Shown: in pieces, positions 13,071 to 13,447 of the stretch
Position numbering within the stretch: position 1 is the stretch's first letter
Layout: each line of letters starts with the position of its first letter
IMG/VR virus record: IMGVR_UViG_2558860274_000001
Coordinates: 1-42,135 of that record
DNA from: a virus
Taxonomy: Duplodnaviria; Heunggongvirae; Uroviricota; Caudoviricetes
DNA: 42,135 nucleotides
Strand: one strand, 5' to 3'
Notes under the pieces: generated by a model
What the model saw: the letters and a program-made list of their open reading frames with translations, nothing else
Databases searched by the model: none
Told to the model about the DNA's origin: nothing
Position numbers and translations under genes: made by a program

Positions 13071-13095
13071 AAAAAAAACCGCCGAAGCGGTTTTT
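13071..13095 (-). terminator. Rho-independent terminator downstream of the Zn-ribbon moron and upstream of H
   Basis: A8-CCGCCGAAGCGG-T5; hairpin core CCGCCGAAGCGG. Confidence 0.55.
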
Positions 13096-13102
13096 GTATT
13101 CT

Positions 13103-13447
13103 TTAAAGAAGTCCGGCCTTACGCCTTGCTTCCTGAAGATATTCATCATCCGTTTTTTGTGAAACGGAACTATCTGCATTGCAAATTAAATCACTACCGC
13201 AATGCTTACATTTAATAGCCTCTTCTTTGATCAACTCCGCACAGTAAGGGCATTTCTTCATGCCATTGCTTACCATTTGTTGTTCATGTGCCTTCTCATC
13301 TCTTTGGATTACTAGCGAATGAACCAGAGCAACAATAAAGATCATCGCACCATATACCCACCATCCTAAAAATGAGCGACCTTTGCTTTTCGCAATAATA
13401 GCTGGAATTAGTCCCAAAACTATTGAAATAAGTAAAAATTCCATCAA
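13103..13447 (-). CDS. Moron: small membrane protein with two predicted TM helices and a C-terminal CxxC...CxxC zinc ribbon
   Basis: 114 aa [18 protein letters not shown]...[22 protein letters not shown]; inserted between T and H where lambda has no gene; own terminator. Confidence 0.6.

Follow-up and report, generated by a model that had tools for sequence, protein, structure and literature searches.

An optional transmembrane zinc-ribbon gene at the T–tape-measure junction of an HK97-like tail module: a probable moron and a candidate superinfection-exclusion factor

A gene for a small membrane protein lying among the tail genes of a siphophage raises the question of what it is doing there. 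In the viral sequence studied here, that of an E. coli prophage (the window, that is, the whole stretch of 42,135 nucleotides that was analysed), such a gene is located immediately upstream of the tape-measure gene. We asked whether it is a component of the tail or accessory cargo, whether it is transcribed with the tail genes or as a unit of its own, and which function its architecture and its relatives would suggest. An earlier description, made from the letters of the sequence without database searches (the sequence-only reading), had considered it a moron, and its claims are taken up below where the results bear on them.

The T–tape-measure junction and its optional gene

Pfam domain assignments on the neighbouring genes gave the minus-strand order G, T, the ORF under study and an HK97-type tape-measure gene, within a tail module that is HK97-like (PF06120, PF06222), in agreement with the sequence-only reading, which had placed the gene between the G-T chaperone genes and the tape-measure gene. 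The canonical −1 slippery heptamer A AAA AAG at 13807-13813 (minus), at the end of G, puts T in frame and yields a G-T fusion product that reads ...EVKKK/VALPGMRFL..., the slash marking the transition. For the tape-measure gene, the start is probably GTG 13054 rather than the ATG 13060 chosen by the ORF finder, as translation from that GTG (minus; window 13052-13060) gives MATLREL, as in HK97 and other loci, with GGAG 5 nt upstream. The coordinates of all features are collected in Table 1.

Table 1. Features of the T–tape-measure junction and its surroundings in the window.
Feature	Position	Strand	Description
Tape-measure protein	9815..13060	minus	1,081 aa; TMP_3, Phage_HK97_TLTM and Tape_meas_lam_C domains
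Terminator-like hairpin	13074..13095	minus	AAAAACCGC-UUCG-GCGGUUUUU plus U-run; dG -12.2 kcal/mol
Variable cassette	13093..13540		last ~12 codons of T, spacer, ORF and 3' tail
Putative moron ORF	13103..13444	minus	113 aa from ATG 13444; stop TAA 13103-13105
C-terminal helix (predicted)	13118..13150	minus	aa 99-109, running on to AGLL
Zinc ribbon	13187..13261	minus	aa 62-86; CPYC (65-68)...CKHC (79-82)
N-terminal transmembrane hairpin	13310..13441	minus	helix aa 2-20, loop KSKGRS, helix aa 25-45
AT-rich spacer, 57 bp	13445..13501	minus	between T stop and start of the putative moron ORF
Tail assembly protein T frame	13502..13792	minus	Phage_tail_T (Pfam)
Tail assembly chaperone G	13804..14190	minus	Phage_TAC_1 (Pfam)

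An in-frame TTG at 13447, one codon upstream of the ATG, opens a 114-aa ORF (13103..13447, minus), which is the length that the sequence-only reading had given; the frame is indeed open from this TTG, but the ATG, with AGGA 7 nt upstream, is the more likely start, and the product would then have 113 residues. The ORF is not a chance reading frame, because dN/dS values of 0.08-0.12 were obtained against same-slot copies from another E. coli lineage, Salmonella phage FSL SP-016 and Cronobacter (comparisons in which synonymous sites are near saturation), a protein collection search returned 1,623 homologues, and PHROG 8436, a family with no assigned function, matched aa 1-111 of the 113 at an E-value of 2e-50. 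By these sequence measures it is a real gene under purifying selection.

The GC content falls to 0.345-0.40 over positions 13000-13600, against 0.52-0.57 (about 0.53) on either side. Eleven sequenced E. coli phages whose flanks are 97-98% identical to those of the window are missing about 400 bp at this point and have no such gene; relatives that lack the moron include the vB_EcoS-640R1, phi467 and Evi types. Among 5,426 complete E. coli genomes, the T–tape-measure junction was detected in 903, with at least 80% of the 1,501-bp query covered in 43 of these; in the majority of the remaining genomes that were sampled, the match extends over about 1,100 bp, which corresponds to an empty junction, and a query restricted to the cassette was found in 45 E. 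coli genomes. Strains Ecol_545 and SC516 have copies that are 100% identical. The gene is thus absent from most E. coli prophages whose flanks are 95-99% identical. At the empty junction, as seen in the 11 phages and in most of the 903 genomes, T and the tape-measure gene lie only about 30-50 bp apart, separated by a spacer that carries the hairpin.

The position of the gene, in the tail operon and beside the chaperone and tape-measure genes, is what might be expected of a structural or assembly component of the tail. Against this, some 95% of the E. coli prophages whose tail genes are nearly identical do not have it, nor do the 11 related phages; moreover, an unrelated lipoprotein gene replaces it in one strain, it is a pseudogene in another, and relatives occur at non-tail positions. 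The presence/absence data effectively refute a structural role: comparison of T–tape-measure junctions, the check proposed by the sequence-only reading, found the gene to be neither universal in this tail module nor structural.

The limits of the variable cassette, about 13093-13540, were set by a five-way alignment, and homology to the empty-junction phages resumes on both sides of it. The sequence of T at its 3' end changes together with the presence or absence of the gene. We propose that the cassette would spread among related tail modules by homologous recombination, which would require a crossover within this 3' part of T and a second one at the conserved hairpin and the start of the tape-measure gene. 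The slot also accepts other cargo: E. coli CE0007a holds there an unrelated 113-aa lipoprotein-like gene (MRKSVVTLACLFFISAC..., extracted locus L006, 905-1246) whose product has the lipobox LFFISAC and gave no Pfam match, and because of this replacement the T–tape-measure junction is a cargo hotspot. In E. coli 2014C-3075, an 88%-identical copy of the gene has been frameshifted into ORFs of 57 and 55 aa (locus L008, 1543-1877), and this decaying copy was left unannotated by PGAP.

We applied the definition of a moron by Juhala and Hendrix, as restated in PMC3594210. The two genes that flank it are immediate neighbours in related phages, and its base composition is unlike that of its flanks. 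The definition further names a promoter and a terminator belonging to the insert, for which the sequence features are described below, and expression from the repressed prophage. On this sequence evidence the gene is very probably a moron, optional, low in GC and horizontally acquired, and the proposal of the sequence-only reading that a moron has been inserted at this point of the tail module holds. What did not hold was its premise that tail modules of this kind normally have no gene at this position, since HK97, which has the same tail type, carries the gp15 moron at this very junction; gp15 was in fact the first moron ever named (PMC3594210). In the GenBank record of HK97, gp15 is annotated as 'moron product' between T and the tape-measure gene, with a putative terminator just before the latter. 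The gene studied here is therefore a new cargo family in the archetypal moron slot. The natural polymorphism of this slot, which may be empty or hold the moron, a lipoprotein gene or a pseudogene within near-identical tail modules, is a convenient starting point for asking how DNA entry mediated by the tape-measure protein is blocked and in what way prophages affect phage susceptibility.

A transmembrane hairpin joined to a zinc ribbon

Hydropathy analysis of the protein identified two hydrophobic stretches, at about aa 3-18 and 25-45, with the basic loop KSKGRS between them. The AlphaFold2 model, built with 47 homologues (mean pLDDT 75.5, pTM 0.34), contains helices at residues 2-20, 25-45 and 50-59, a small beta ribbon at 62-86, a disordered segment at 89-97 and a further helix at 99-109. 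Across the alignment of 47 diverse homologues, twelve residues of the hairpin are invariant (G11, P14, A18, K21, G22, F25, W28, W29, Y31, G32, A39 and H42), and so are the putative metal ligands C65, C68, C79 and C82. Residues 62-86 match the Pfam model Zn_ribbon_3 (PF13248) with 34.7 bits, against a gathering cutoff of 27, and an E-value of 1e-8, while the C-terminal helix is conserved within the subfamily that occupies the T–tape-measure slot. From these features we infer a small inner-membrane protein in which a two-helix transmembrane hairpin anchors a zinc ribbon of the KCPYCAE...KCxxCG type, followed by a short predicted C-terminal helix. The two N-terminal transmembrane helices and the C-terminal CPYC...CKHC ribbon of the earlier description were thus recovered, the helices by hydropathy and AlphaFold2 and the ribbon by Pfam.

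Searches of Pfam, NCBIfam and PADLOC for a functional label returned generic zinc-ribbon matches only. In PADLOC-DB 2.0, no defence system was matched, the only hits being two marginal ones of zinc-finger type (E-values of 0.0012 and 0.0067). Comparison with solved structures gave just insignificant matches to bL32-like ribbons, and a search of BFVD with the AlphaFold2 model matched only other unnamed zinc-ribbon proteins. A search of the literature on the moron family, on PF14373 and on zinc-ribbon exclusion proteins found nothing relevant.

The hairpin itself belongs to a large set of proteins. With the first 54 residues as query, a search of 1.84 billion proteins retrieved 1,950 cluster representatives, 213 of them at E-values of 1e-10 or lower; Pfam has no model covering this region. 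Among 146 hairpin proteins, the most frequent partners are zinc ribbons (77), and a few have SHOCT, ankyrin, HTH_3, GYF_2, HIRAN or pentapeptide domains. Cues to the topology point in opposite directions. The loop between the helices has a family mean of 2.2 positive charges against 0.04 negative ones, and by the positive-inside rule this basic loop would place the N and C termini, and hence the zinc ribbon, in the periplasm; contrary to the loop charge, the cytoplasm-type partner domains found in relatives (HTH_3, HIRAN and SHOCT) suggest that the ribbon is cytoplasmic. In relatives with two copies of the hairpin (e.g. P0241 and P0244), exactly one extra transmembrane helix lies between the copies, which implies an antiparallel arrangement of the two hairpins, a pattern that is familiar from dual-topology membrane protein families. 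One of these two-hairpin relatives, P0241, also has an N-terminal HTH of the Cro/CI type.

Such an architecture could be that of an abortive-infection or membrane-damage effector, in which holin-like oligomers of the hairpin would depolarise the inner membrane once the ribbon senses a phage component, so that the infected cell dies. In its small size, two transmembrane helices and charged C-terminal tail the protein resembles class II holins and the transmembrane effectors of defence systems, the linking helix of the tandem-hairpin relatives suggests that hairpins pack against each other, and one relative adds a HIRAN-like DNA-binding domain after its ribbon. We nevertheless regard this explanation as unlikely, given that no PADLOC effector was matched, that the gene lies neither in the lysis cassette nor in a defence island and has no evident partner sensor gene, and that the strong conservation of specific hairpin residues is atypical of generic pore formers. 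A class II holin proper was rejected on the position of the gene outside the lysis cassette.

The upstream spacer and the downstream hairpin

The spacer upstream of the ORF holds the Shine-Dalgarno sequence AGGA (13452-13455) and a conserved −10-like element, TATTAT (13477-13482). Only one −35-like hexamer stands at a suitable distance from it, ATGATC (13500-13505), a weak one that shares positions with the stop codon of T on the upstream border of the spacer. A scan for sigma-70 promoters upstream of the ORF returned none that matched at least 9 of 12 consensus positions, the best candidate being ATGATC-17-TATTAT with 8/12. The −10-like element, conserved as TATTAT or TATGAT, is paired with only a weak −35. 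The homologue from Atlantibacter has, judged by eye, a promoter-like sequence of 9/12 (TTGGTA-17-TATGAT).

At the other end, the terminator-like hairpin starts 8 nt past the stop codon of the ORF, has a UUCG loop and a run of eight U, and lies directly upstream of the ribosome-binding site of the tape-measure gene. Every slot copy examined has an intrinsic terminator after the gene. Phage 606R7, whose junction is empty, has the same CCGC-loop-GCGG-U8 hairpin immediately ahead of its tape-measure gene, and in E. coli CE0007a this hairpin follows the lipoprotein gene. Because it also occurs at empty and at differently filled junctions, the hairpin is not private to the moron gene. The sequence-only reading had assigned the gene its own hairpin and T-run terminator; both elements are where it had put them, but they are found without the gene too. 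At empty junctions the hairpin is either a deletion scar or a fixed feature of the junction, and in phages that lack the moron it could be such a scar, serve as a landing pad for recombination or attenuate the expression of the tape-measure gene. An Rfam search found nothing above threshold, and its sub-threshold matches were anchored on the terminator.

A related motif was seen more widely. In two Pseudomonas phages and a Klebsiella phage, the tape-measure gene is preceded by the near-identical arrangement hairpin-TTTTTT-ATTG(T/C)CCGGAGAAAAGC-start codon (extracted loci L004 ~4580-4620, L009 ~4380-4420 and L010 ~4450-4490), which resembles the sequence TTTTTTTTCGTCCGGAGAATGAGTG at 13054-13095 of the window. 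The motif would be a non-coding sequence that is conserved, surprisingly, across genera.

These features bear on a further explanation, in which the gene belongs to the late operon, is read through from the late promoter without a promoter of its own, and serves the lytic cycle of the phage itself, where it might guard against secondary injection as T4 Imm does, or tune lysis or the interactions of the tail tip with the membrane. The lack of a convincing sigma-70 promoter upstream is consistent with this, as are the location of the gene on the same strand as the tail genes and inside their operon, and a downstream hairpin that is found without the gene and so defines no private transcription unit. 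On the other side is a homologue in Microcystis phage Mae-JY04, a gene for a transmembrane and zinc-ribbon protein that follows T on the opposite strand (L011 4001-4303, +) and precedes a 633-aa ORF without Pfam match, presumably the tape-measure gene; as it runs opposite to the tail operon, it must have its own promoter in that phage. The 9/12 promoter-like site of the Atlantibacter homologue also argues against dependence on the late promoter, the AT-rich upstream spacer and the foreign GC content fit an autonomous cassette, and most related phages manage without the gene. Taken with these points, a purely lytic role seems improbable.

Relatives in the same slot and the case for superinfection exclusion

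In each of the best 80 matching loci in IMG/VR, with identities of 62-100%, the gene is preceded by G/T and followed by an HK97-like tape-measure gene (80/80), and the homologues of Salmonella phage FSL SP-016 and Cronobacter occupy the same slot between G/T and the tape-measure gene. A tblastn search of phage genomes showed relatives in many temperate phages. In Pseudomonas phage YMC11/02/R656, gp065, annotated as 'immunity to superinfection', has its gene flanked by those of the chaperones (TAC_4, DUF1799) and of the tape-measure protein, and consists of PF14373 Imm_superinfect (E-value of 1.6e-18) followed by Zn_ribbon_3, an architecture that a search with gp065 found to be common. It aligns with the window protein at 33% identity over aa 3-86 (BLASTP E-value of 5e-15), with the ribbon supplying most of the pairwise score. 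Proteins with a different membrane anchor and a near-identical ribbon are also encoded just upstream of the tape-measure gene in Pseudomonas phage D14C and Klebsiella phage ST846-OXA48phi9.2.

More distant relatives are located elsewhere: in the slot between K and I in Atlantibacter, between L and K in Edwardsiella, at non-tail positions in Klebsiella KP12 and Marinomonas P12026, at a prophage end beside an O-acyltransferase and a YafO toxin gene in Enterobacter, and in an apparently non-phage chromosomal context in Pantoea. Genes for proteins with PF14373 and a ribbon were likewise found beside a CI-like repressor gene, directly after an integrase gene and after the gene of a BamE-like lipoprotein. 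These positions away from the tape-measure gene are typical accessory positions.

Non-phage contexts such as that in Pantoea would be expected if the protein were a lysogenic-conversion factor unrelated to phage, which alters the envelope physiology of the host (metal, stress or colonisation) in the manner of Lom or Bor. The presence of a Lom moron in the same prophage is consistent with this, and so is the wide distribution of the hairpin domain over 1,950 clusters and diverse partners. We consider it to have a low probability, however, as the close subfamily is tied to the pre-tape-measure slot in all of the best viral loci and distant phages have proteins of similar architecture encoded in the same place; the linkage and the recurrence together point to a selective reason that is related to phage. 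Like the window moron, Lom is encoded by an accessory envelope-protein gene of the tail region that is dispensable for the virion, but it is an outer-membrane beta-barrel with a role in host interaction, occupies the slot after J and has no sequence relationship to the window protein. The Ail/Lom outer-membrane protein gene of the window (3261-3929, minus; PF06316, E-value of 5e-128), a second classical moron in this prophage, has the J-like tip gene (3931-7428) on one side and a collagen-repeat tail-fibre gene (1892-3196) on the other.

The reading that we prefer, to which we would give a probability of roughly 40%, is that the lysogen produces the moron protein, which prevents DNA from entering at the inner membrane and is specific to tails with the linked type of tape-measure protein. 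By analogy with known systems, the protein would be made in the lysogen and seated in the inner membrane, where it would block the genome entry of incoming siphophages as their tape-measure protein opens a conduit through that membrane, and its position beside the tape-measure gene would keep the specificity of exclusion linked to the type of tail that is excluded. This reading is favoured because HK97 gp15 excludes from the same slot and T4 Imm has a similar two-helix build; within it we infer expression from the prophage, the membrane topology, and the exclusion activity and its target. The gene itself is shown by genome and protein comparisons to be optional, foreign in composition, selectively maintained, of the hairpin-ribbon architecture and recurrent in its slot.

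HK97 gp15, which is encoded at the T–tape-measure junction, resides in the inner membrane and prevents superinfection by HK97 and HK75, an effect that depends on the tail (PMC3594210). The two genes have in common the slot, a small inner-membrane protein as product, an AT-rich composition relative to the flanks, a terminator-like hairpin shortly ahead of the tape-measure gene and absence from related phages. Their products differ, gp15 having 62 aa, a single hydrophobic segment (as read from its sequence), no zinc ribbon and a match to PF13974 (YebO), whereas the window protein has 113 aa and two transmembrane helices; in addition, the exclusion activity of gp15 is proven, while that of the window protein is only a candidate one. 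Homology between the two was ruled out, with a BLASTP E-value of 0.3 and a PF13974 profile that matches gp15 and not the window protein.

The T4 Imm-type fusions of PF14373 and Zn_ribbon_3, such as gp065, resemble the window protein in having a transmembrane hairpin followed by a CPYCAE...KCxxCG ribbon and in occupying the slot between chaperone and tape-measure genes. The hairpins of both types are built from a first helix of the LPAIIA type, a basic loop and a second helix rich in W and G, and share Zn_ribbon_3, SHOCT and GYF_2 as partner domains, although the loop between the helices is about 10 residues shorter in the window family than in the PF14373 type. T4 Imm itself lacks a zinc ribbon and exerts its effect in the course of a lytic infection. 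The PF14373 profile gave no match at an E-value of 1 or lower in the window protein or in any of the 47 homologues (0/47). In a comparison restricted to the hairpins, hhalign gave 57% probability over 21 columns with Imm, covering the first helix alone, and cross-HMM scores did not exceed 10 bits, with 104 of 121 true sequences scoring against 4 of 121 reversed decoys. Membership of PF14373 was rejected, there being no profile match and the hairpin-only comparisons being too weak for homology; we claim only that the window and Imm hairpins are similar in build and possibly remotely related. Tab of phage JBD26 was also considered as a related tail-linked moron and set apart by description only, being encoded between terminase genes; the paper on Tab makes no mention of zinc or of a transmembrane feature.

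For superinfection exclusion, then, we count the optional presence of the gene, its foreign GC content, the cargo hotspot in which it lies, the conserved residues, the recurrence in the slot and the terminator after the gene. The weaknesses are the lack of homology to gp15 and of a match to PF14373 or PADLOC, a promoter that scores at most 8/12, a hairpin that also occurs without the gene, the contradictory cues to topology and the frameshifted copy in one strain.

If the protein is a true exclusion factor, it would represent a second, unrelated family acting at the slot of HK97 gp15, and it would give a concrete function to a common domain pair, the transmembrane hairpin with a zinc ribbon, which occurs in thousands of clusters and is annotated only as 'zinc ribbon domain-containing protein'. 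Should it have no anti-phage role, the finding would be that of a correctly identified moron only. The most interesting by-product of the analysis is that membrane-anchored zinc ribbons recur just upstream of tape-measure genes in unrelated phages, from which a testable hypothesis follows. Membrane-anchored zinc ribbons of the KCPYCAE type might form a large, unrecognised class of injection-blocking exclusion factors, parked upstream of the tape-measure gene for linked specificity, in which the anchor may be either the Pfam-less GLIPAxIAxxKGRSxxxWWxYG hairpin or a hairpin of the T4 Imm type, and whose range would extend over the temperate siphophages of hosts as different as enterobacteria and Pseudomonas, possibly also of cyanobacteria. 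We put this generalisation forward as a tentative and rather doubtful one.

One further association was observed among the relatives. In Pseudomonas phage D14C, the gene of a BamE-like lipoprotein lies immediately before that of the membrane zinc-ribbon protein (L009 3596-3928 and 3965-4276), and the same pairing is present in a Sphingomonas locus (L117 1324-1632 and 1691-2089), so that a BamE-like lipoprotein and a membrane zinc ribbon may constitute a recurring two-gene pair.
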